Positions 48 to 13,070 of a stretch of DNA of 52,699 nt are shown here, in pieces. The stretch spans positions 1 through 52,699 of the forward strand of contig JBGAGQ010000043.1 in the NCBI GenBank assembly GCA_044226625.1, written 5' to 3'. The notes beneath the pieces were generated by a model. It had not been told where the DNA came from. It made no database searches and was given only the letters and a program-made list of their open reading frames with translations. Positions within the stretch are counted from its first letter, which is position 1; each line of letters opens with the position of its first letter. Both the position numbers and the translations under genes were made by a program. The stretch comes from Thermoanaerobaculia bacterium (GTDB taxonomy: Bacteria; Acidobacteriota; Thermoanaerobaculia; Multivoradales; UBA5704).

Positions 48-950
48 TCAAGACCGCCAAAAAGCGATCAGCATCGCGCAGCCGATGACGGCATAGAGCG
101 CGCGATAGCGCGTCTGCAAACGGTGGATGCTCGCGTAGCCGAGGCCCTCCCGCTGGGCCCGATGGGCCCAGCGCAAGTGCAGCGGAGAGAGCGCGGCGAG
201 CGCCGCCAGCGGCAGAGGAAGAAAGCCGCTGAACGCGAGGACGGGCAGCAGCGCATAGGCCACCGCGAAGAGCGCCAGGCTCGCCCCAAAGGTGCGACGC
301 GGCCCGAAGCGGGCGGCATGCGTCCGGACTCCGTTCAGCACGTCGCCCTCATGGTCGCGGACCTCCTGGGTCAGATGGCCGGCAGCAAAGGTGATTCCGA
401 AGAAGGCGCCCACAGCGAGGCCGCGGAGGTCCAAACTTCCCGCCAGCGAAGCTCCGAGCAGGAAATGGAGGGTGCCCCCCGCCAGGTGAGCCGCCGAGGA
501 GAAGAAGGGCTTGCCCTTCCAATCCAGACGAGGCAGGGAGTAGAACGCGCTCAGCGCGGCAATGCCCGCGGCGAGGCCGAGCGGGAGCGCCCCCAGGCGG
601 CTCATCAACACGAGGCTCAGAGTCAGGGCAACTAGGGCCAGCAGGCCGATCTCGTTCGAGGCGACGCCACGGGCAGTGAAAACCGCCGAGGCTTTGTGGG
701 GATCAACGAGGTCCTTGGTCTCCCCGGCCCAATCGTTGAGCAGGAACACGTGCGCCACCAGCAGGAAGTTGGCGACGAGGAGCAGGACGAGCGATTCGAG
801 ATGGGCTTCCGTCGCGCGCCCTAGAACGAGCACGGCGCCGAGCAGCGGCGAGCCCTGGAGGACGAGGATCTCCGGCAACCGAAGGCAGGAGAGATAACGC
901 GCCGCCGAGGCTCTAGCGGAGGCCGGGGCGGCGAGCGTGCGAAAACTCAT
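48..950 (-). CDS. UbiA-family prenyltransferase (integral membrane)
   Basis: 300 aa, about 8-9 hydrophobic segments. Asp-rich motif I-like NDWAGETKDLVDPHK (second Asp replaced by Gly) and motif II QEVRDHEGDVLNGVRTHAARFG. Start overlaps the end of the upstream CDS by 38 nt. Confidence 0.85.
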   Translation of the reverse strand: MSFRTLAAPASARASAARYLSCLRLPEILVLQGSPLLGAVLVLGRATEAHLESLVLLLVANFLLVAHVFLLNDWAGETKDLVDPHKASAVFTARGVASNEIGLLALVALTLSLVLMSRLGALPLGLAAGIAALSAFYSLPRLDWKGKPFFSSAAHLAGGTLHFLLGASLAGSLDLRGLAVGAFFGITFAAGHLTQEVRDHEGDVLNGVRTHAARFGPRRTFGASLALFAVAYALLPVLAFSGFLPLPLAALAALSPLHLRWAHRAQREGLGYASIHRLQTRYRALYAVIGCAMLIAFWRS

Positions 951-3609
951 CGAAAATCCTCAACCAGAGGGCGTACCCGACGTCCTCCGACCAATAAAAG
1001 CGGGACACGGTGGCCGACAGGTCGTTGTGATAGAGCAGCGGCGGATCCTTCCTCAATATTGCGAAATCGTCGGCGGCGAGCCGGCTGAGCACCGATTCGG
1101 CATCCGACCTGAGGCCCTGGGATTTCTTTTCCTGCGCGCCTCCGAGGCGTTGGGCGACGGTCGTCCAGACCTCCTGTCCCGCCACGGTCGACCGCACCCT
1201 CGCCGACGGCAGCTCGATGTTGCAGCCGACGCGCTCGAGGTCCGCCTGGCGCAAGGTCGGAACGAGCGGAGCCTTACCGTAATAGACCCAGATTCGATCC
1301 TGATCGATCGCCGGCCGGAGCGCCGCGCAGAGCGCCCGTGCCGCCGCCGGCCGTTCCTTGGCGAACAGCAGCATCAAGTGCATCTGGATCGCGACGTCGG
1401 CTGGATTCGGGTCGCTTCCAGGATCGAGGCACTGGTATCTCTCTCGCGGCGCGAGCCAGGTTCGGTAGAGCCCCTCGGACGTGCGGTACTCCTCCAGGGT
1501 CGCAAGCGCGGTTTCGAGCCGCCGGCGGTCGCGGGCGGGAGCGAGCCGCCAGACGAGCGCCGTATCGTCGCTGTCGGGAGTGATCGAACATCCGAGTGTA
1601 CCGATCCCGGGACCGTCCGGCAGGCCGTGGTAACGCACCAGGCCGTCCGCCTCGATCTGGGCGGTCAGGTGCGCTCGCGCGCGATCCAGGTTGGATTCGA
1701 GGCCCGCTCGCGCGGCGACCGGTTCGAGCAATTCCACCAGCAGCGAGGTAGTGAACGTGTTCATCTCCGGACGCGGCGTCTCGTAGCGCGTCTCGCTGGT
1801 GTAGCTGGTGAGCCAGGAGCCGGGCCCTTGCTGATGCTCTCGGATGCGCCCAGCGGCCGCCTTCGCCGCCGCATCGAGGTCGACGCCTCCGGGAGCACTT
1901 CCCCCTGGGGCGCGCGAGGCGTCAGCCTCCTTCACAACCACTGTCCGCTCGCCGAGGTACCTCCCCTCCCCCCTCTCGGTCGCCCAGGCGAAGGCCGTGA
2001 GGCGGTGCTCACCGGGTACGAGGTCGCCCGTCCGGAGAGGGATGCGCCAACCCGCGGACGCCGTCTCGCCGACCGCCTCGCGCACGTCCTGGCGGTCGTA
2101 GAACAGGCGGGAAGCCACCGTGCGGTGGCCGTCGATCGAGACCGCCACCCGGTCCGCCGTCGCGCGACCGGCGAGCGCCCAGCCGACGGCGACCACGGGC
2201 TCGCCCACCTCTATGGTGGAAACCGGAAGGCCGTCGACCTCGAGGGAGTCGAAGCTCCCTTGCATCTCGATCCCAAGATCCGTCGGCGCCGGCCCGTGGC
2301 GCAAAGCGGCGGCGTACGGGGCGTTCCGCCAAGTCCACGCGGAAGCGGCGGAGGCCACCGGACCGTCGATCGCGCTCACGAACCAGAACGCACCGATCCC
2401 TTGAAGCCCCACGGCAGCGCCGACCCCGAGGCCGAACACGCCGCGGCCCAGCGTTCGGAACGACGCGACGACCGGCGCAAGCATCCAGACGAGCAGCGGC
2501 AGCAGGTCGGTCATATAGCGCGGTCCCCAGTAGATGCCGTTCCGCCAATCGGTCTTCGCGTACATCAGGAGCTGGAGCACGGCCGCGATCCCGATCGCCC
2601 AGCCGAGCCCGCGCTCCATCGGCGGATACCTCCAGACCCAGGCGAGGAGCAGCAGGAACGGGGAGAACACGAACAGCCCTCGCCCCGGGCTGAACAGTAA
2701 GCCGCCGAGACCGGAGAGGAGATCGTGGTCGAAGAAAGCGGCACGCCCCATCCGTCCGTAAGCACCCGCGAAATTACCGGCCATACGGAGGTTATAGAAC
2801 AGCACCAGCCCGACGGGAAGGGCAGCGGCCGCCGCCAGCCACGGCCACCGGCGGCCGGCCCAGACGAGAGCGTACGCTCCCAGAGCGGCCGCGATAATCG
2901 CGTCGGGAGGCCGGTTCCCGGCGAGGAGCCCCAGCAGGAACCCGACCGCCACGGTCCGCCATGGGCTCGACGGAGCGGTCAGGAGGAAGAGGGCGCCGAC
3001 ACCCAGCAGCTCGGCCAGCCCGTGCTGCCAGAGCGCCTGGCTCGAGATCATCCAGGTCGTGGTGCCGAATGCGTACGCGCACGTGAGCGCAAGAGCGATT
3101 TCCGTCGTGACCCGCCGCCGCAGAAGAAGAAAGAGGAACGCCGCGGACAGCGCCGCGACGAGCGATGCCGCGAGCTTTTCCATCACCCGCGCCACGTGGT
3201 CCAGCCGCGCGTCCGTCCAGCCTTTGAGGTGTAGGTACGCGACCGCGGGAAGGTAGAGCGGGGCGAGTAGCATCGGCTGCACTACCGGATAGAGCGACAG
3301 CGTGGGTCCGCCCGGAACCGCCACCATCCAGAACGCCGTGCTGCCCCGCCCCTGCGCGACGATCGGCGCGATCGGATCGAGCGCGAGCGTGTGGTACCGC
3401 CAGATCGCGAACGGCAGATACCGCGCCGGATAGGTGTCGCCCGCCCCGATCGATCGTCCGTTGGCGTTGTAGATGCCGAAGCAGAGGAGACCTACCAGAA
3501 GGCTCGCGCAAAGATCGCGGCGGGCGGGCTTCCCAGGAGCCGAGGGCGGCGCGGACGTCGGCGCAGTGGTCCGCGCGATCCGCTCTCGGCCGCTGGGAGC
3601 TTCACGCAT
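913..3609 (-). CDS. Fusion protein: GT-C-like multi-TM glycosyltransferase + Ig-like domain + class II terpene cyclase/(alpha/alpha)6-like C-terminal domain
   Basis: The N-terminal ~420 aa are polytopic, with GDT in the first loop, GTTTWMISSQALWQHG, NRP, LFSPGRGLF and WGPRYMTDLLP (GT-C/PMT-like). Middle beta-sandwich GWAL...IDG...RQDV...GW...GEHRL. C-terminal region has QW-like QQGPGSW and PDSDDTA (nt 1578-1558). ATGCGTGA overlap with the upstream gene. Confidence 0.75.
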   Translation of the reverse strand: MREAPSGRERIARTTAPTSAPPSAPGKPARRDLCASLLVGLLCFGIYNANGRSIGAGDTYPARYLPFAIWRYHTLALDPIAPIVAQGRGSTAFWMVAVPGGPTLSLYPVVQPMLLAPLYLPAVAYLHLKGWTDARLDHVARVMEKLAASLVAALSAAFLFLLLRRRVTTEIALALTCAYAFGTTTWMISSQALWQHGLAELLGVGALFLLTAPSSPWRTVAVGFLLGLLAGNRPPDAIIAAALGAYALVWAGRRWPWLAAAAALPVGLVLFYNLRMAGNFAGAYGRMGRAAFFDHDLLSGLGGLLFSPGRGLFVFSPFLLLLAWVWRYPPMERGLGWAIGIAAVLQLLMYAKTDWRNGIYWGPRYMTDLLPLLVWMLAPVVASFRTLGRGVFGLGVGAAVGLQGIGAFWFVSAIDGPVASAASAWTWRNAPYAAALRHGPAPTDLGIEMQGSFDSLEVDGLPVSTIEVGEPVVAVGWALAGRATADRVAVSIDGHRTVASRLFYDRQDVREAVGETASAGWRIPLRTGDLVPGEHRLTAFAWATERGEGRYLGERTVVVKEADASRAPGGSAPGGVDLDAAAKAAAGRIREHQQGPGSWLTSYTSETRYETPRPEMNTFTTSLLVELLEPVAARAGLESNLDRARAHLTAQIEADGLVRYHGLPDGPGIGTLGCSITPDSDDTALVWRLAPARDRRRLETALATLEEYRTSEGLYRTWLAPRERYQCLDPGSDPNPADVAIQMHLMLLFAKERPAAARALCAALRPAIDQDRIWVYYGKAPLVPTLRQADLERVGCNIELPSARVRSTVAGQEVWTTVAQRLGGAQEKKSQGLRSDAESVLSRLAADDFAILRKDPPLLYHNDLSATVSRFYWSEDVGYALWLRIFDEFSHARRPGLR

Positions 3610-4543
3610 GGCCCCGAAGATATTTCATCCCGGTGTCGCACATCAGCGTGACGATCGTCGCCCCCGGGCCGAGATCCTCGGCGACCCTCAGGGCGGCGAC
3701 GACGTTCGCGCCCGTCGAGGTTCCGGCGAAAATCCCTTCCTCGCGCGCGAGGCGGCGGGTCATCTCGACCGCATCTTCGGTCGAGACCGGTTCGATTCGA
3801 TCGGCGACGCCCTCGCGCCAGAGCGGCACCACGAACCCGGCGCCGATGCCGTCGATCTTGTGCGCGCCCGGCGGCTTGCCCGAAAGGACGGCCGACTCGG
3901 CGGGCTCGACGGCGACGACGCGAAGCCCTTCCCGGTGGCGCCGCAACCCTTCCGCCGTCCCCCGCAGCGAGGCCGCGGTGCCGACGCTCTGCACGTAGGC
4001 GTCGATCTCCCCGCCGGTCTGCGCCCAGATCTCCTCGGCCATCTCGTCGTAAGCGCGGAGCTGGTCTGCGTTGCTCAGCTGGTTCGTCCAGAAGCCCTCC
4101 GTCTCCTCGGTGATCCGCCGCGCCGCCTCGACCATGTCGCGCGTGAGCCTCTCGGTCATCCCGCCGCTCTCGCTCTCCAATACCTGAAGTTTCGCGCCGA
4201 ACCGCCTCATGTGGTCGAGCTTCTCCCCGGCGAACGCGTCGGAGGTCACGATGTGGAGCGTGTATCCCTTGACCGCGCAGATCATCGCGAGTGAAACCCC
4301 GGTGCTTCCAGCGGTGTATTCGACCACCGAGCCCCCCGGCCGGAGACGCCCGTCCGCCTCCGCCGCCTCGATCATCGCGAGCGCCATCCGGTCCTTCATG
4401 CTGCCGGTTGGATTCTCGTCTTCGAGCTTTAAGAGGATGCGCGGACCGCTGGCCGGCACCACACGACGCAAGGCCACCACGGACGTCTTGCCGATGCGAT
4501 TCAAGATGTCCGGCCGAATGGGTCCCCAACCCGTGCTCATCAC
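3602..4543 (-). CDS. PLP-dependent cysteine synthase/CBS-family enzyme (divergent substrate loop)
   Basis: KLEDENPTGSMKDR (PLP lysine), VEYTAGSTG in place of TSGNTG, SVGTAAS in place of GTGGT, HKIDGIG, EGIFAGTSTG, CDTGMKYL. Start is GTG 4543 or ATG 4540. Confidence 0.9.
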   Translation of the reverse strand: MMSTGWGPIRPDILNRIGKTSVVALRRVVPASGPRILLKLEDENPTGSMKDRMALAMIEAAEADGRLRPGGSVVEYTAGSTGVSLAMICAVKGYTLHIVTSDAFAGEKLDHMRRFGAKLQVLESESGGMTERLTRDMVEAARRITEETEGFWTNQLSNADQLRAYDEMAEEIWAQTGGEIDAYVQSVGTAASLRGTAEGLRRHREGLRVVAVEPAESAVLSGKPPGAHKIDGIGAGFVVPLWREGVADRIEPVSTEDAVEMTRRLAREEGIFAGTSTGANVVAALRVAEDLGPGATIVTLMCDTGMKYLRGHA

Positions 4544-4674
4544 GATCTCCCGCGGAAGGTTTGTTTCGTCCTGAGGGGCCTTAACCGGTGCGAGGGGAGG
4601 AGAAATTGCAGCGTGACGCCCCGCGATGGAACGTGCTAGGAATGGTGCCTCGAAAGACTTACGAGAGAACCCAA

Positions 4675-5211
4675 ATGCCCTCGTTCCGCGAAGGTTGGCT
4701 CCGCGCCCGGAGCGCGTTTCTCATCGTCTTCCTCTCCATGGTCGGCTGCGGGGCGCTCTTCATCGGCCTCGAGCTCGCAGGGATGGACGACTGCCGTCAG
4801 TTTCCGGGGGTGCTCGGGCGCGACGCGTGCGAGCGGTTCGGGTCGATCGCCGCTGCGGCGCCGTGGATCCTGCTCGGGGCGGCCTGCATCGTCTTCCTGT
4901 TCAAGGGCTCTCGGTGGCTCAAGGAACCGCCCACACCACCCACGCCTCCCTTGACTCCGCGGTCGCGACGAATCACCAAGATCATTCTCCTTCTGATCGG
5001 CCTCTGGATGATCGTCGACGGCGGTTTGCTCGTCACCCGGGTCGAGCCCTGCTCCGACCTGAAGATCGGAGCGGGTCAATACAAGGCCGCGGGAGACGGG
5101 CTCGCGAAGCTCTGTGAGTGGCTGGGACCGTGGGTCCCTGGCTTGTTCTTCATCGGCTTCGGTGGGCTGATCTTGTTCGGTCTCTACAAAGGAATGCTCG
5201 ACGGCGAGTGA
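4675..5211 (+). CDS. Hypothetical 4-TM membrane protein with two Cys-bridged loops
   Basis: Four hydrophobic helices arranged as two TM-(C...CExxG)-TM halves joined by a Pro/Arg-rich linker. ATG 4675 chosen over GTG 4588. Confidence 0.65.
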   Translation: MPSFREGWLRARSAFLIVFLSMVGCGALFIGLELAGMDDCRQFPGVLGRDACERFGSIAAAAPWILLGAACIVFLFKGSRWLKEPPTPPTPPLTPRSRRITKIILLLIGLWMIVDGGLLVTRVEPCSDLKIGAGQYKAAGDGLAKLCEWLGPWVPGLFFIGFGGLILFGLYKGMLDGE

Positions 5212-5937: not shown

Positions 5938-7476
5938 TCATTGGAACGGCACTCCGCGCGGCCCTTCGATCACCAGCTCGACGGTGTAATCGATCGTCTT
6001 GCAACCGTCGACGTGCCAGGAGACGTCGCCCGAGATGGCGCTCGCTCCCAGCGTGAAGCCGGGGGTTCCGGTGATCTGGCCGGAGCCGTAGGGCTGGTGG
6101 ACGCCGACCGCCGCGAGCTTCCAGCCGTTCGCGAGGCTCGCCGTGTAGTGGTCGGTTCCGCTGCCGCCGCCCAGGGCGCAGATGCCGAAAAAGCCCAAGA
6201 TCGGAATCGATTGGTGCCACCCCTCGATCGAGGTCGTCGGCGCGCCGGAGAACTCGCATCCGTCGATCTTGTCATTGCACCAGTTGCATGAGACTTCGTT
6301 CGCGCACGACGCCGAAACCGCGGAGGGTGGCAACGTCTGAAAGTCGATCGCGGGCGAAAAGACCACCGGATAGAGGTTGCTCTGCTTGCCGTCCGCTCGA
6401 GTCGCCCGGAAGAACCCCGTCTGCGCCATGGCACCCGACGCGTCGAGGGGGATTCGGGCGAGGATGAACTCCTTCGTCCAAGCGCCCGAAGAGGGGCCGA
6501 TCTCCAAGGGAATCAGCAGCTCCCCACCCGTCGGATTCTTGAGCAGGAATTCCAACTTTCCCTTCCCGGAACCGGCGAAGACGAAGTCCTTGCCATCGAT
6601 GACCAGCCAATCGCCCGGGGCGACCCCTCCGACATAGTCGACGCTCACGATTTTCGGCGGCCCGGTGTTGACGAGTTCGATGATCGCGGCGCAGATGCCG
6701 GGGTTTACGTCACAACAGTCGAAGATTTTCTCGCAGACTTTGAACAGGGGGAGGAAGAAGGGGCAGGCTGTATCTGCTACCTCGATCTGGCTGGTCACCG
6801 TGCCGCCGCAGCCGGTCGCCTTCAACGGGAACTTACCTTTGGGGTAGGAATGGAGGATCCCGGCTTCCGTCGGCGAAAGCGTCGCCTTCGTCCCGTCGCC
6901 GAAATCGAGCTCGATCGAGCAGTTTCCCTCGCGCAGGACGAAGATCTTTTCGAGCGAGGTCGGAGTCGCCAGCGGATACCACGGGACGATGCCGGAGATC
7001 GAGCCCACCGCCGGAGCGTCCTTCACCTTGACGGAGAAGGGGCCGCCGAGATTCGCCTTGTCGACCGTCGAAAACCAGGTGACCCCCTCCTGCACCATGT
7101 CGAGGGTGAGGACGTAGTCGCCCGCCTCGTCCGGTGCTTGGATGACCATCGAGACCTTCGCCGAATCCCCTTTCTTCATCGTCTTCGGCACCGGCGTGCG
7201 CTGTCCTTCGAGGTTGGGCCCTTCGCTCACGCCGTTCAGCGACCAGTGATAGAAGAGATTGAACTTGGTGTCCGCCGCGCAGTCGTCACGCGTCCAAGGG
7301 TTGTCGCCGGTGTTCTGGATCACGACATCGAGGGCCAACACCTGGCCGACGGTGACCGCCGAGGGAGGGGTCGCCGTGAAAGTCACGCCATAGCCTGCCG
7401 CTCGCGCGCCCGCCGAGCAGAAGACCAGGGCTACGAACGCGCACAGGCGCCGCAATCTGCCCGATCTCTTACGCAT
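5938..7476 (-). CDS. Secreted Cys-rich multidomain protein (NBR1-type Ig-like, PKD-like, IPT/TIG-like domains)
   Basis: Signal peptide ending AGARA. IQNTGDNPW...YHW...APDEAGDYVLTLDMVQEGVTWF (NBR1-Ig-like). ELDFGDGT...HSY (PKD-like). PKIVSVD...GDWLVIDGKDF (IPT-like). Two Cys clusters. Confidence 0.75.
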   Translation of the reverse strand: MRKRSGRLRRLCAFVALVFCSAGARAAGYGVTFTATPPSAVTVGQVLALDVVIQNTGDNPWTRDDCAADTKFNLFYHWSLNGVSEGPNLEGQRTPVPKTMKKGDSAKVSMVIQAPDEAGDYVLTLDMVQEGVTWFSTVDKANLGGPFSVKVKDAPAVGSISGIVPWYPLATPTSLEKIFVLREGNCSIELDFGDGTKATLSPTEAGILHSYPKGKFPLKATGCGGTVTSQIEVADTACPFFLPLFKVCEKIFDCCDVNPGICAAIIELVNTGPPKIVSVDYVGGVAPGDWLVIDGKDFVFAGSGKGKLEFLLKNPTGGELLIPLEIGPSSGAWTKEFILARIPLDASGAMAQTGFFRATRADGKQSNLYPVVFSPAIDFQTLPPSAVSASCANEVSCNWCNDKIDGCEFSGAPTTSIEGWHQSIPILGFFGICALGGGSGTDHYTASLANGWKLAAVGVHQPYGSGQITGTPGFTLGASAISGDVSWHVDGCKTIDYTVELVIEGPRGVPFQ

Positions 7477-10646: not shown

Positions 10647-10694
10647 GGCGCACCTCGTCACATCCTCTAAATTTACTATTTATTTTTTGTTAAT

Positions 10695-13070
10695 TCAAGC
10701 TCTTCCGGTTTTTGCCTCAGCCGCAGACCACCCGTACCTGCAGCGTCCTTCCCGCCTCGACCTTGCCGAGCACCCCTCCGGGAAGGGACCGGCCATCGAC
10801 CTCGACGTTCGCCTCGCCGAGGCGGAGCCCCGGCTGCCGTTCGATCTCGACCTCCAGGGTCGCGCCGCGGTAGGGGCGACGCATCCGGGCGCGCGGCCAG
10901 GAGGGGGGCAGACAGGGACGCCGAGCACGTTCTCGGCGACGACGCGCGGCAGCCAGGCGGCCGAGCCGGTGTACCAGGTCCAGCCGGCGCGGCCGCGGAA
11001 GGGGCTCTCGGGACCGTCGACGTTGCCTGGCAGCACGTAGGGCTCGGCCCAGTAGAAGTCCGGCTCGTGGAGCGACGGGTTGATCCAGGCGAGGAGCCGC
11101 TCGACCGACTCGCAGTCGTTCATCGCGGCGGCCGCGGCGATCGCCCAGGTTGCCGCGTGCGTATACACGCCGCCGTTTTCGCGCAGCCCCGGCGCGTAGC
11201 GAGTGATGTAGCCGACCGTCTCGTCCGGCTCGCTCCACGCGGGAGCCAGAAGCAGCGCGCCGACGCCCGGGCAGAGAAGGTGGGTGCGCACGGAGGCCCA
11301 GGCCGCGGCGGCTCGCTCGGGCCGGGCGGCGCCTGACAGGACCGCCCAGGTCTGGGCGTTCAGGAAGATCCGGCCGAACCGGTTGTCGGCGCTGCCGATC
11401 CAGGTGCCGTCGTCGCGCGTGGCGCGGCGGTACCAAGCGCCGTCCCAGGCGTGCTCCTCGATCGCCGAAAGATAGGCGGCGCGGCGCGCGAGGAAGTCCT
11501 CGGCCTTGCCCGCCTCGCCGCGGCGGCGGGCGATCTCGGCCCAGTCGGCGAGCAGACCGACGAGGAACCAGGCGAGCCAAACCGACTCCCCCGCTTCCAG
11601 CAGACCCACGGCGGAAAGACCGTCGTTCCAATCGCCCGCGCCGATGTAGGGCAGTCCGCGCTCGCTGGTGCGGGAGAAGACTCGCGCGAAGGCGCGATCG
11701 ATGTGCTCGGAAAGGGAGCCCGGCCGCGGCTCGTCGAGATACGGCGCGCGGTCGTCGAGCAGCGCGAGCTCCCCTACTTCTTTGGCGTAGTTCGCGGTGA
11801 CGAACGCGAGCCAGAGCAGGTCGTCGGTCATCCGGGTGACGTGGCCCTGCTCGGTGAGCGGGTGCCACCAGTGGACGACCGATCCGTCGGCGAACTGGTG
11901 GCCGGAATGGAGAGCGATCTGCGCCCGGCAGCGCGCGGGCTCGATGGTGAGCCAGACCTGCGAGTCCTGGAGCTGGTCGCGAAATCCGAACGCTCCGCTC
12001 TGCTGGTAGTAGCCGGCGCGCCCCCAGAGCCGCGCCGAGATCGCCTGGTAGCGCAGCCAGTTGTTCGCCAGCCGGTCGAGCGAGGCGTCGGGGGTTTCGA
12101 TGCGGAAGCCGGCGAGGAGGTCGCGCCAGCGCGAGACCGCGCGCTCGAACGAAGCGTCCATCGCCTCCGTGGGGGCGAAGCGCCGACCGAGCTCCGCGGC
12201 CGAGCCGGCCTCTTCCGTGGTCGCGAGGACGAACCCGCCGTCCCACCGGCCGTTACCGGGCAGGTCGATCTCGGCGCGGAGGACCGCGATCGGGTCGTAA
12301 TGCCGGCCGAACCGCCCGGCCCAGAGCCGCGTCGGCTCGAGCGCCACGGGGCGCCGCCAGTCGCCGCCGATTCCGAGGAACGCCGCCTTGTCCCCCTCCG
12401 CCGCGGCGATCGGCTGCGCGGAGACGAACGCGCTCCAAAACGGGAAGGAGGTGTTCCAGTGCCCCCAGCGGGAGCTTCCGACGTCCCACATGTGGCTGCC
12501 GGCGACGATTCCCGGCAGCTCCGGCAGCCAGCGGGTTTCGAGGAACAGCTTCTGGAACTCGCGCCGCGGCGCGGGCGAGGTACCGCAGTTCCATTCGAGG
12601 AACGGAACGAGCGAAAGGCGCCGGGCGCGTCCCTGCCGCTCGACGAGCGAGACGCGCCAGATTTCGACCGTCTCGTCCGGGACGACGAACAGCGTCCAGG
12701 TCGCCCGGACGCCGTCGTGCTCCGATTCGAAGGTCGTATAGCCGAGACCGTGCCGGCAGACGTGGCCGCCGAGCTCGAAGCCGCACGGGGCGGGGGCGAG
12801 CGAGGCGATCCGGCCGTCCTCCCGATCGCTCAGGTAGAGGAAGCGGCCGGACCGGTCGTCGGCGAGATCCTGCTGCCAACGCACGATCGCGCCCAGCTGC
12901 GAGTTGTCGATCCAGGAAAAGCCGCTCCCCGTCTGCGACACCGCGAGCCCAACGCGCGGATTGGAGATCACGTTCGCCCAGGGACGCGGCGTCCGCGGGT
13001 CGGTGATCACGTATTCGGAACCGTCGGCTGAGAAATGCCCGTAGCGGTTGTGGTCGTGCCCTGCGCTCAT
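10695..13070 (-). CDS. GH94 glycoside phosphorylase, NdvB/Cgs C-terminal-like; frameshifted near the C-terminus
   Basis: TPRPWANVI, GYYQQSGAFGFRDQLQD, HWWHP, DDLLWL, GDWNDG (catalytic Asp), GESVWL, RENGGVYTHA, GWTWYTGSA. ATG 13070 has a GGAGAGG RBS; alternative TTG start at 13112. The sequence after VLGV leaves the family frame. Confidence 0.9.
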   Translation of the reverse strand: MSAGHDHNRYGHFSADGSEYVITDPRTPRPWANVISNPRVGLAVSQTGSGFSWIDNSQLGAIVRWQQDLADDRSGRFLYLSDREDGRIASLAPAPCGFELGGHVCRHGLGYTTFESEHDGVRATWTLFVVPDETVEIWRVSLVERQGRARRLSLVPFLEWNCGTSPAPRREFQKLFLETRWLPELPGIVAGSHMWDVGSSRWGHWNTSFPFWSAFVSAQPIAAAEGDKAAFLGIGGDWRRPVALEPTRLWAGRFGRHYDPIAVLRAEIDLPGNGRWDGGFVLATTEEAGSAAELGRRFAPTEAMDASFERAVSRWRDLLAGFRIETPDASLDRLANNWLRYQAISARLWGRAGYYQQSGAFGFRDQLQDSQVWLTIEPARCRAQIALHSGHQFADGSVVHWWHPLTEQGHVTRMTDDLLWLAFVTANYAKEVGELALLDDRAPYLDEPRPGSLSEHIDRAFARVFSRTSERGLPYIGAGDWNDGLSAVGLLEAGESVWLAWFLVGLLADWAEIARRRGEAGKAEDFLARRAAYLSAIEEHAWDGAWYRRATRDDGTWIGSADNRFGRIFLNAQTWAVLSGAARPERAAAAWASVRTHLLCPGVGALLLAPAWSEPDETVGYITRYAPGLRENGGVYTHAATWAIAAAAAMNDCESVERLLAWINPSLHEPDFYWAEPYVLPGNVDGPESPFRGRAGWTWYTGSAAWLPRVVAENVLGVPVCPPPGRAPGCVAPTAARPWRSRSNGSRGSASARRTSRSMAGPFPEGCSARSRREGRCRYGWSAAEAKTGRA
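10717..10917 (-). pseudogene. Out-of-frame native C-terminal beta-sandwich of the GH94 gene
   Basis: The alternative frame reads PCLPPSWPRARMRRPYRGATLEVEIER...VEVDG...LQVRVVCG-stop, the typical GH94/GH65 C-terminal domain. Confidence 0.75.

Follow-up and report, generated by a model that had tools for sequence, protein, structure and literature searches.

The window analyzed here, the whole of a 52,699-nucleotide stretch from a Thermoanaerobaculia bacterium (Acidobacteriota), contains a conserved two-gene module in which the gene for a UbiA-family intramembrane prenyltransferase follows a gene for an 898-aa fusion protein; the latter joins a membrane domain with the GT-C fold of glycosyltransferases, a beta-sandwich and a single-domain barrel resembling class II terpene cyclases. 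We tentatively read the module as a periplasm-facing route to a glycosylated, cyclized prenyl (meroterpenoid-type) envelope lipid, which in our judgment is possible and short of probable; this reading accounts for the three conserved parts, for their fusion and for the linkage of UbiA to the cyclase-like domain.

The source assembly comprises 6.6 Mb (98% complete, 5.5% contamination), and the window covers 52.7 kb of its contig C34 from base 1 onward; the sequence 3′ of the UbiA gene therefore lies off the contig. Three minus-strand open reading frames (ORFs) overlap at this end (Table 1), by 38 nt between UbiA and fusion (913-950) and by 8 nt between the fusion and a gene for a pyridoxal 5′-phosphate (PLP) enzyme (3602-3609); at the second junction, ATGCGTGA, the fusion ATG lies inside the final codons and stop of the PLP gene. 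The ORF coordinates and the junction sequence confirm the three overlapping minus-strand genes, with the same 8-nt and 38-nt overlaps, described in a first-pass annotation of this DNA. Because all three ORFs have homologues, that observation stands, and they are genuine genes, not shadow ORFs of high-GC DNA. An overlap of the UbiA start with the fusion stop recurs in relatives, with ORFs that end at 10748 and start at 10708 in L003 and at 10652 and 10621 in L020.

A genome scan, restricted to one genome per species, identified 31 loci, mostly in Thermoanaerobaculia; the other carriers are Bryobacterales, metagenome-assembled genomes (MAGs) of Holophagales, Pyrinomonadaceae and Rhodocyclales, Candidatus Binatia, Hydrogenophaga sp. 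A37 and the cultured Variovorax paradoxus NBRC 15149, which has an intact copy (L019). In 29 of the 31 loci, the gene that immediately follows the fusion encodes a UbiA homologue (the exceptions are L029, where the contig ends, and L031), and when all 1349 ORFs from these loci were clustered, only fusion and UbiA were common, shadow ORFs aside, the next genuine ORF cluster being represented in 7 loci. The fusion is present in 23 of 41 genomes of relatives searched, the window's own genome included, and in 20 of the 24 in the same family. Among the 24 relatives' loci fetched with 1.5-kb flanks, four of which come from same-genus genomes, UbiA was found in 21; of the three misses, one is covered by a neighboring locus and two are weak matches to the N-domain only. 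A metagenome scan returned 398 relatives, from which 80 loci were kept, and here UbiA accompanies 40 of 44 fused loci, including every one of the 35 in which at least 900 nt of downstream sequence is present. In contrast, the PLP gene adjoins the fusion in none of the 31 genome loci, none of the 24 relatives' loci, same-genus ones included, and none of the 80 metagenome loci. The conserved unit is UbiA plus fusion and is therefore a two-gene module, to which the PLP gene appears, from these comparisons, to be a local passenger. The latter gene gives a PALP match at E 3e-66 and has the lysine motif SMKDR; it scores 274.7 and 266.8 bits with the cysKM and cysK models (cut-offs 344 and 351) and is likewise below cut-off with the SbnA and cysM models. 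The genome has at least 6 CysK-family copies, namely this gene and those at five further places. The co-conservation of three genes that the first-pass annotation had anticipated thus stood for UbiA with the fusion and failed for the PLP gene; its three-gene pathway was rejected on this non-conservation, on which the annotation had itself made the proposal depend, and the two-gene module is what is left.

The fusion protein has 1529 relatives at E ≤ 0.001 among 8000 candidates scored; every source-given name among the 120 relatives listed is 'hypothetical protein', and no Pfam family matched the protein. An AlphaFold2 (AF2) model built from 34 relatives (predicted local distance difference test score, pLDDT, 86.5) has a helical membrane region, a beta-sandwich and an alpha-helical barrel, in this order. 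For the membrane region, Foldseek matched ArnT (5ezm) at E 5e-4 over 416 columns, and further ALG12 (9s6t, 4e-3), STT3 (8pn9, 4e-3; 6c26, 5e-3) and PimE (9dm5, 5e-3). The NCBIfam model for the LA_3751/LA_3752 putative glycosyltransferase reached E 1.3e-9 (37.4 bits, below the cut-off of 200), and weak PMT_2 matches were obtained in relatives from L030 and L077. These structural matches indicate that the N-terminal part is a GT-C-fold membrane domain. GT-C enzymes have a catalytic acidic residue in the first extracytoplasmic loop; by analogy, D58, which comes right after the first transmembrane helix (residues 28-48) and is conserved in at least 90% of the 34 full-length relatives, is a candidate for this residue. 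The beta-sandwich is modeled as all-beta, with pLDDT of about 85-94, has no Pfam match and, taken together with the alpha/alpha barrel, resembles complement and alpha2-macroglobulin chains in Foldseek; it may serve in carbohydrate binding or as a spacer. In proteins of 1050-1190 aa from Rhodocyclales (L026:5454-9020), Hydrogenophaga (L030:43-3198) and one metagenome contig (L153:325-3579), the cyclase-like domain follows a membrane part that is longer and divergent; this N-terminus went undetected by tblastn with the N-domain of the window protein, and the Hydrogenophaga copy gives a weak PMT_2 match.

The C-terminal domain was also modeled alone (pLDDT 89.4, predicted template modeling score 0.90), and for both structure aligners its closest fold is that of class II terpene cyclases, of the (alpha/alpha)6 beta-domain type, which fits better than that of sugar-acting barrels. 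In Foldseek, drimenol synthase and a Cystobacter protein of 347 aa designated 'squalene-hopene cyclase' (8pak) take up the first 10 rows, and the subsequent rows include 6ij1, squalene-hopene cyclase (SHC), oxidosqualene cyclase and MstE. The motif PDxDDTA is near-invariant among 30 fused-type sequences (alignment A1), with D106, D108, T110 and A111 invariant and D109 conserved in at least 90%. Among 15 stand-alone relatives, DxDD is found in 14, the most distant one, P0236, being without it, and DxDDT is invariant in these 14 (28-59% identity to the first of them; alignment A4). For comparison, YPDxDDTA occurs in 5 of 13 Acidobacteriota SHCs and PDxDDS or PDxDDTG in 4 more, and a D.DD motif is present in 10 of the 13. 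A QQxxGxW segment of the domain aligns with the QW repeats of SHC in hhalign. The domain profile retrieved 280 clusters at 50% identity among 1.8 billion representatives, and a Pfam scan of the domain alignment produced chance-level matches only. All 15 stand-alone relatives have a strongly hydrophobic, signal-type N-terminal segment, and 7 of the 15 a lipobox-like Cys; in the fused form, the domain comes after a GT-C membrane domain with an Arg-rich N-terminus. Because the stand-alone relatives start with signal-type segments, the cyclase-like domain is predicted to be extracytoplasmic, that is, periplasmic.

The partner gene product matches PF01040 with 74.4 bits (cut-off 34.2); its best NCBIfam match, 52.5 bits against a cut-off of 205, places it in no named subfamily, and its profile retrieved only UBIAD1 from the PDB (E 0.0056). 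In an alignment of 21 sequences (A2), N72, D73 and D80 are invariant, and at least 90% of the sequences keep G76 and D83, which yields the clade motif NDWxGxxxDxxDP. The canonical NDxxDxxxD is thereby replaced by NDxxGxxxDxxD, with Gly at the position of a Mg-binding Asp; the second acidic motif is present (DxxxD), its E196, R198, D199 and D203 being invariant in the same alignment. The equivalent of G76 in Rv3806c, Asp77, binds Mg2+ and is conserved in the superfamily according to PMC10994848, and hhalign pairs G76 with an Asp of the true decaprenyl-phosphate phosphoribosyltransferase of this genome. The latter is encoded at C5:933-1811 (NF008977, 310 bits, cut-off 234) and was the only gene above cut-off in a whole-genome phosphoribosyltransferase scan, in which C75 gave one weak fragment and the window UbiA nothing; the models NF008977 and NF008978 did not match the window UbiA at E ≤ 0.1, and hhalign gave a probability of 0.8% for its relationship to the C5 protein. 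The models, the C5 gene and hhalign together rule out, at the sequence level, that the window UbiA is a plain polyprenyl-phosphate phosphoribosyltransferase, an outcome that the first-pass annotation had named as fatal to its proposal: the protein falls outside that family, and the true member is at C5. The neighbors of the C5 gene (L072/L154) include a GT4 gene, a methyltransferase gene and a PhyH-family gene, nothing decisive for the module; given the C5 enzyme, a separate pentofuranose-type donor pathway may exist in this organism. The remaining UbiA genes of the genome encode heme o synthase, an MqnP-like enzyme and two unassigned prenyltransferases. The domain calls of the first-pass annotation, namely UbiA as PF01040, a GT-C fold for the N-terminal part of the fusion and a single-domain class II cyclase fold with DxDD for its C-terminal part, were upheld throughout; what it missed are the beta-sandwich, the predicted periplasmic location of the cyclase-like domain, the replacement of the Mg-binding Asp in UbiA and the loci within polysaccharide clusters.

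Of the 11 loci that span at least 6 kb and encode the cyclase-like domain by a stand-alone gene, 9 also have a UbiA gene of the same clade close by, frequently divergent or in a different order, and 5 have a GT-C homologue close by; L089-L091 show GT-C first, UbiA next and then the cyclase-like gene on the opposite strand. This pattern of fission and fusion, whereby the same parts occur as one protein or as separate neighboring genes, argues that UbiA, the GT-C domain and the cyclase-like domain share one pathway. There are also GT-C-only paralogues without a cyclase-like part (36-48% identity; genomes G130, G131, G132, G135, G136, G138 and G142, loci L161-L167); of the 11 loci fetched for these, 7 contained the GT-C match, and none of the 7 had a UbiA gene of any of the six types searched within approximately 5 kb. 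Taken together, 9 of 11 unfused loci against 0 of 7 GT-C-only loci indicate a closer association of UbiA with the cyclase-like domain than with the GT-C domain.

Under the reading that we favor, the UbiA-family enzyme would produce a polyprenyl-bearing lipid at the cytoplasmic face of the inner membrane, and the fusion protein would act on this product from the periplasmic side. There, the GT-C domain would transfer a sugar from a polyprenyl-phosphate-sugar donor, and the class II cyclase domain would cyclize the prenyl tail, with DSDD protonating an isoprene double bond; these periplasmic steps, glycosylation and cyclization, would need neither ATP nor nucleotide cofactors. In line with this reading, ArnT and PimE, which are among the enzymes matched by fold to the GT-C domain, glycosylate membrane lipids. 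Alongside the observed gene linkage, the three folds, the motif conservation and the placement of UbiA outside the phosphoribosyltransferase family, all substrates, the order of the steps and the cyclase activity are what we infer. The more specific proposition, that a cyclase domain works at the periplasmic surface of the inner membrane, where the gene fusion would couple it to glycosylation by GT-C and the atypical UbiA enzyme would feed it, is conceivable and open to considerable doubt.

Several observations weigh against this reading. With respect to the cyclase assignment, the cyclase families of Pfam (SQHop_cyclase, Prenyltrans) gave no match at E ≤ 10 for 30 domain sequences, and neither single-protein nor profile searches retrieved a PDB cyclase. 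Comparison with Acidobacteriota SHCs by hhalign (13 and then 10 sequences) reached E 1e-4 to 8e-4 for the QW-like part only, and because the alignment covered just this repeat, the register of DxDD is not confirmed by sequence; DSDD is accordingly a candidate for the catalytic general acid. The many invariant polar residues of the domain (A1) would be equally suited to a sugar-binding site. With respect to location, the literature on characterized cyclases describes them without an export signal; to our knowledge, all known class II cyclases act from the cytoplasmic side, and an exported one would be without precedent. The UbiA enzyme, being without the Mg-binding Asp, may have an unusual chemistry, and family members so far have no assigned activity or product. 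Finally, isoprenoid-supply families are found neither among the recurrent neighbors nor among the 25 most frequent Pfam families (143 neighbor ORFs from 62 loci), and such themed neighbors as there are, in a minority of loci, belong to polysaccharide synthesis.

These neighbors fit the first alternative, the main rival, in which the module decorates a periplasmic glycan as a variant of the 'three-component' side-chain systems: UbiA would make a sugar or other donor linked to polyprenyl phosphate, the GT-C domain would move the donor group onto a finished polysaccharide or O-antigen-like glycan, and the sandwich and barrel, with no part in any cyclization, would act on the glycan or its donor, either by binding or by processing such as hydrolysis or epimerization without a cofactor. 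We consider this rather unlikely. The layout of a GT-C domain followed by a beta-sandwich suits it, and so do the polysaccharide genes at some module loci: a family of giant sulfotransferase-GT2-GT4 proteins in 14 of 111 loci, Wzm and Wzt (with Wzt_C) in 4 loci, genes for GDP-mannose dehydratase, pyruvyl transferase and the synthesis of 3′-phosphoadenosine 5′-phosphosulfate at other loci, and GT4, GT2, UDP-glucose dehydrogenase and epimerase genes beside the Variovorax module. However, most loci have no further common neighbors, glycan genes included, and a flippase (MATE or SMR) and a 5-phosphatase are absent from the recurrent neighbor clusters and the top 25 Pfam families of the loci, to which this search was confined. 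Moreover, UbiA lies outside the phosphoribosyltransferase family, which is represented at C5, and its absence near the GT-C-only paralogues implies that it is no general donor supplier for the GT-C family. The near-invariant PDxDDTA and the closer fit of the barrel to cyclases than to sugar-acting enzymes would also be left unexplained.

A second alternative is that the cyclase-like domain acts on an isoprenoid already present in the membrane (a polyprenyl-phosphate carrier released by the GT-C domain, a carotenoid or a quinone), or that it is a lipid-binding module that feeds the GT-C domain. Such a role would be compatible with a periplasmic domain beside a lipid-using GT-C enzyme and with the lipobox-like Cys of 7 of the 15 stand-alone forms, which would thus sit on the membrane surface, and it would call for none of the dedicated isoprenoid-supply genes that are indeed not linked to the module. 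It would, however, leave the near-constant company of UbiA unexplained, and the intact acid motif favors catalysis over mere binding; we know of no precedent for a cyclase-like domain acting in this manner, and regard the alternative as improbable. The three-enzyme pathway of the first-pass annotation, with the PLP enzyme supplying an amino-acid-derived acceptor or side chain, is the least credible, for although the PLP and fusion genes share 8 nt and are probably transcribed together here, and the enzyme, which falls short of the equivalog cut-offs for cysK and cysM, may have a role other than housekeeping cysteine synthesis, the lack of adjacency in all three sets of loci and the five further CysK-family places make its membership very improbable. 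A role of the module as a hopanoid substitute was also considered and dropped, because SHC and the module are not complementary: SHC is absent from the window's own 98%-complete genome, and of the 7 genomes with a full-length SHC (E < 1e-100) among the 41 of relatives, four (G129, G135, G136 and G139) have the module as well.

Table 1 Features of the module and the adjoining PLP gene in the window.
Feature	Coordinates	Strand	Basis or remark
UbiA-family intramembrane prenyltransferase, atypical	48..950	-	ORF listing; 300 aa; PF01040; conserved fusion partner
UbiA first acidic motif NDWAGETKDLVDP: N72, D73, G76, D80, D83	699..737	-	alignment A2
UbiA second acidic motif E196-x-R198-D199-x-x-x-D203	342..365	-	alignment A2
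Three-domain fusion, 898 aa: GT-C, beta-sandwich, class II cyclase-like barrel	913..3609	-	ORF listing; AF2 model
GT-C-fold membrane glycosyltransferase domain (predicted), residues ~28-440	2290..3528	-	Foldseek
Asp58, first extracytoplasmic loop AGDTYPARYLPF, candidate GT-C catalytic residue	3436..3438	-	conservation
Beta-sandwich, residues 449-560, possibly carbohydrate-binding or spacer module	1930..2265	-	AF2 model
Single-domain class II terpene-cyclase-like (alpha/alpha)6 barrel, residues 578-893, predicted periplasmic	931..1878	-	
DSDD, residues 679-682, in ITPDSDDTALVWR; class II general-acid-type motif	1564..1575	-	alignment A1
CysK/CysM-family PLP enzyme, 313 aa, first gene of local operon	3602..4543	-	ORF listing; PALP

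Beyond the PLP gene, the plus-strand ORF at window positions 4588-5211 encodes a 207-aa hypothetical membrane protein of no Pfam family, with a 58%-identical homologue in L003, approximately 7 kb from the module there and on the opposite strand. The minus-strand ORF at 5938-7476 encodes a predicted secreted protein of 512 aa, residues 38-155 of which resemble the C-terminal parts of the GT-C proteins of L089-L091 (29-34% identity); judging from this similarity, it probably has an immunoglobulin-like or beta-sandwich module in common with these unfused GT-C proteins of about 700 aa. The window's neighbors upstream of the PLP gene were not found near the module in the other loci.

Interrupted copies of the fusion gene occur in relatives: G122 has one in-frame TGA, in G123 a TAA separates the GT-C part from the cyclase part, and one copy in G142 is fragmented and contains a TGA. 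Such interruptions could reflect decay, natural splitting or errors of assembly. In a Bryobacterales MAG, a gene for an ISL3-family transposase (L027:3317-4390) is located upstream of a stand-alone cyclase-like gene, and in Variovorax, a relaxase-domain gene (L019:15911-17140) and a haemagglutinin-repeat gene are found near the module copy. These neighbors, together with the patchy taxonomic spread, hint at horizontal transfer of the module.

Cyclic terpenoid lipids, such as hopanoids and sterols, shape membranes and leave molecular fossils. The components of the module are of known kinds, and its architecture and location are unprecedented: a cyclase-type domain that is predicted to be exported, with an intact acid motif, is fused to a putative lipid-dependent glycosyltransferase and nearly always found beside an unusual UbiA protein. 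If the cyclase were active outside the cytoplasm, this would be the first case of extracytoplasmic terpene cyclization, and the envelopes of many soil Acidobacteriota and some Burkholderiales would contain an undescribed class of cyclic-terpenoid glycolipids, which could provide a new fossil record alongside the hopanes. A lipid-making module would add a new envelope component to abundant soil bacteria, whereas a glycan-decorating one would extend the periplasmic side-chain systems by a further branch, with the cyclase fold in a new use. The system is experimentally accessible, because the cultured Variovorax paradoxus NBRC 15149 has an intact copy.

No published description of a fusion between GT-C and terpene cyclase domains, nor any paper that brings the two enzymes together, was found in article texts, and none was found in the literature that joins Thermoanaerobaculia, prenyltransferase and cyclase. 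Among the known systems with which the module can be compared, SHC consists of two domains and approximately 630-720 aa, whereas the cyclase-like domain of the module is single. Exported actinobacterial proteins of the 'terpene cyclase/mutase family', which are Tat-dependent (twin-arginine translocation), tail-anchored candidates, indicate that alpha/alpha-toroid proteins so annotated can bear export signals; the available part of that report mentions no link to GT-C or UbiA (PMC10924467).

The three-component pentofuranose systems, the closest in gene logic, consist of a UbiA-fold polyprenyl phosphoribose synthase, a flippase and a GT-C enzyme of family GT136 with a carbohydrate-binding module (Kelly et al. 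2024, PMC11127046). The module is similar in that a UbiA-fold gene lies beside a GT-C gene with a beta-rich, predicted extracytoplasmic module, and in that some loci are parts of glycan clusters of the ATP-binding cassette transporter type. It differs in that its UbiA is outside the phosphoribosyltransferase family, in its additional cyclase-like domain and in that no flippase, phosphatase or epimerase is conserved beside it.

The remaining two systems are the closest in fold and concern the barrel itself. MstE of Scytonema (6sbb) is a single-domain class II meroterpenoid cyclase that matches the cyclase-like domain in fold, at only 12-15% identity and with no profile match. Cyclases of the MstE type are reportedly paired with a UbiA enzyme. 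The domain described here differs from MstE in being fused to GT-C and predicted to be exported, and also in its motif, DxDD being kept in the fusion family, in contrast to the DxD given for MstE in PMC12324236. The same source describes a widespread clade of single-domain MstE relatives, from a survey that was limited to proteins of 300-400 aa; because of that filter, fusions of 900 aa fall outside it. The drimenol synthase AsDMS (9mhs, 9m7d-f), the substrate of which is farnesyl diphosphate, combines a class II beta domain with a haloacid dehalogenase (HAD) phosphatase and again matches the domain in fold, at 8-10% identity. Thus, in AsDMS, the fusion partner of the class II domain is the HAD phosphatase, whereas in the module described here, the partners are the predicted GT-C domain and the beta-sandwich.

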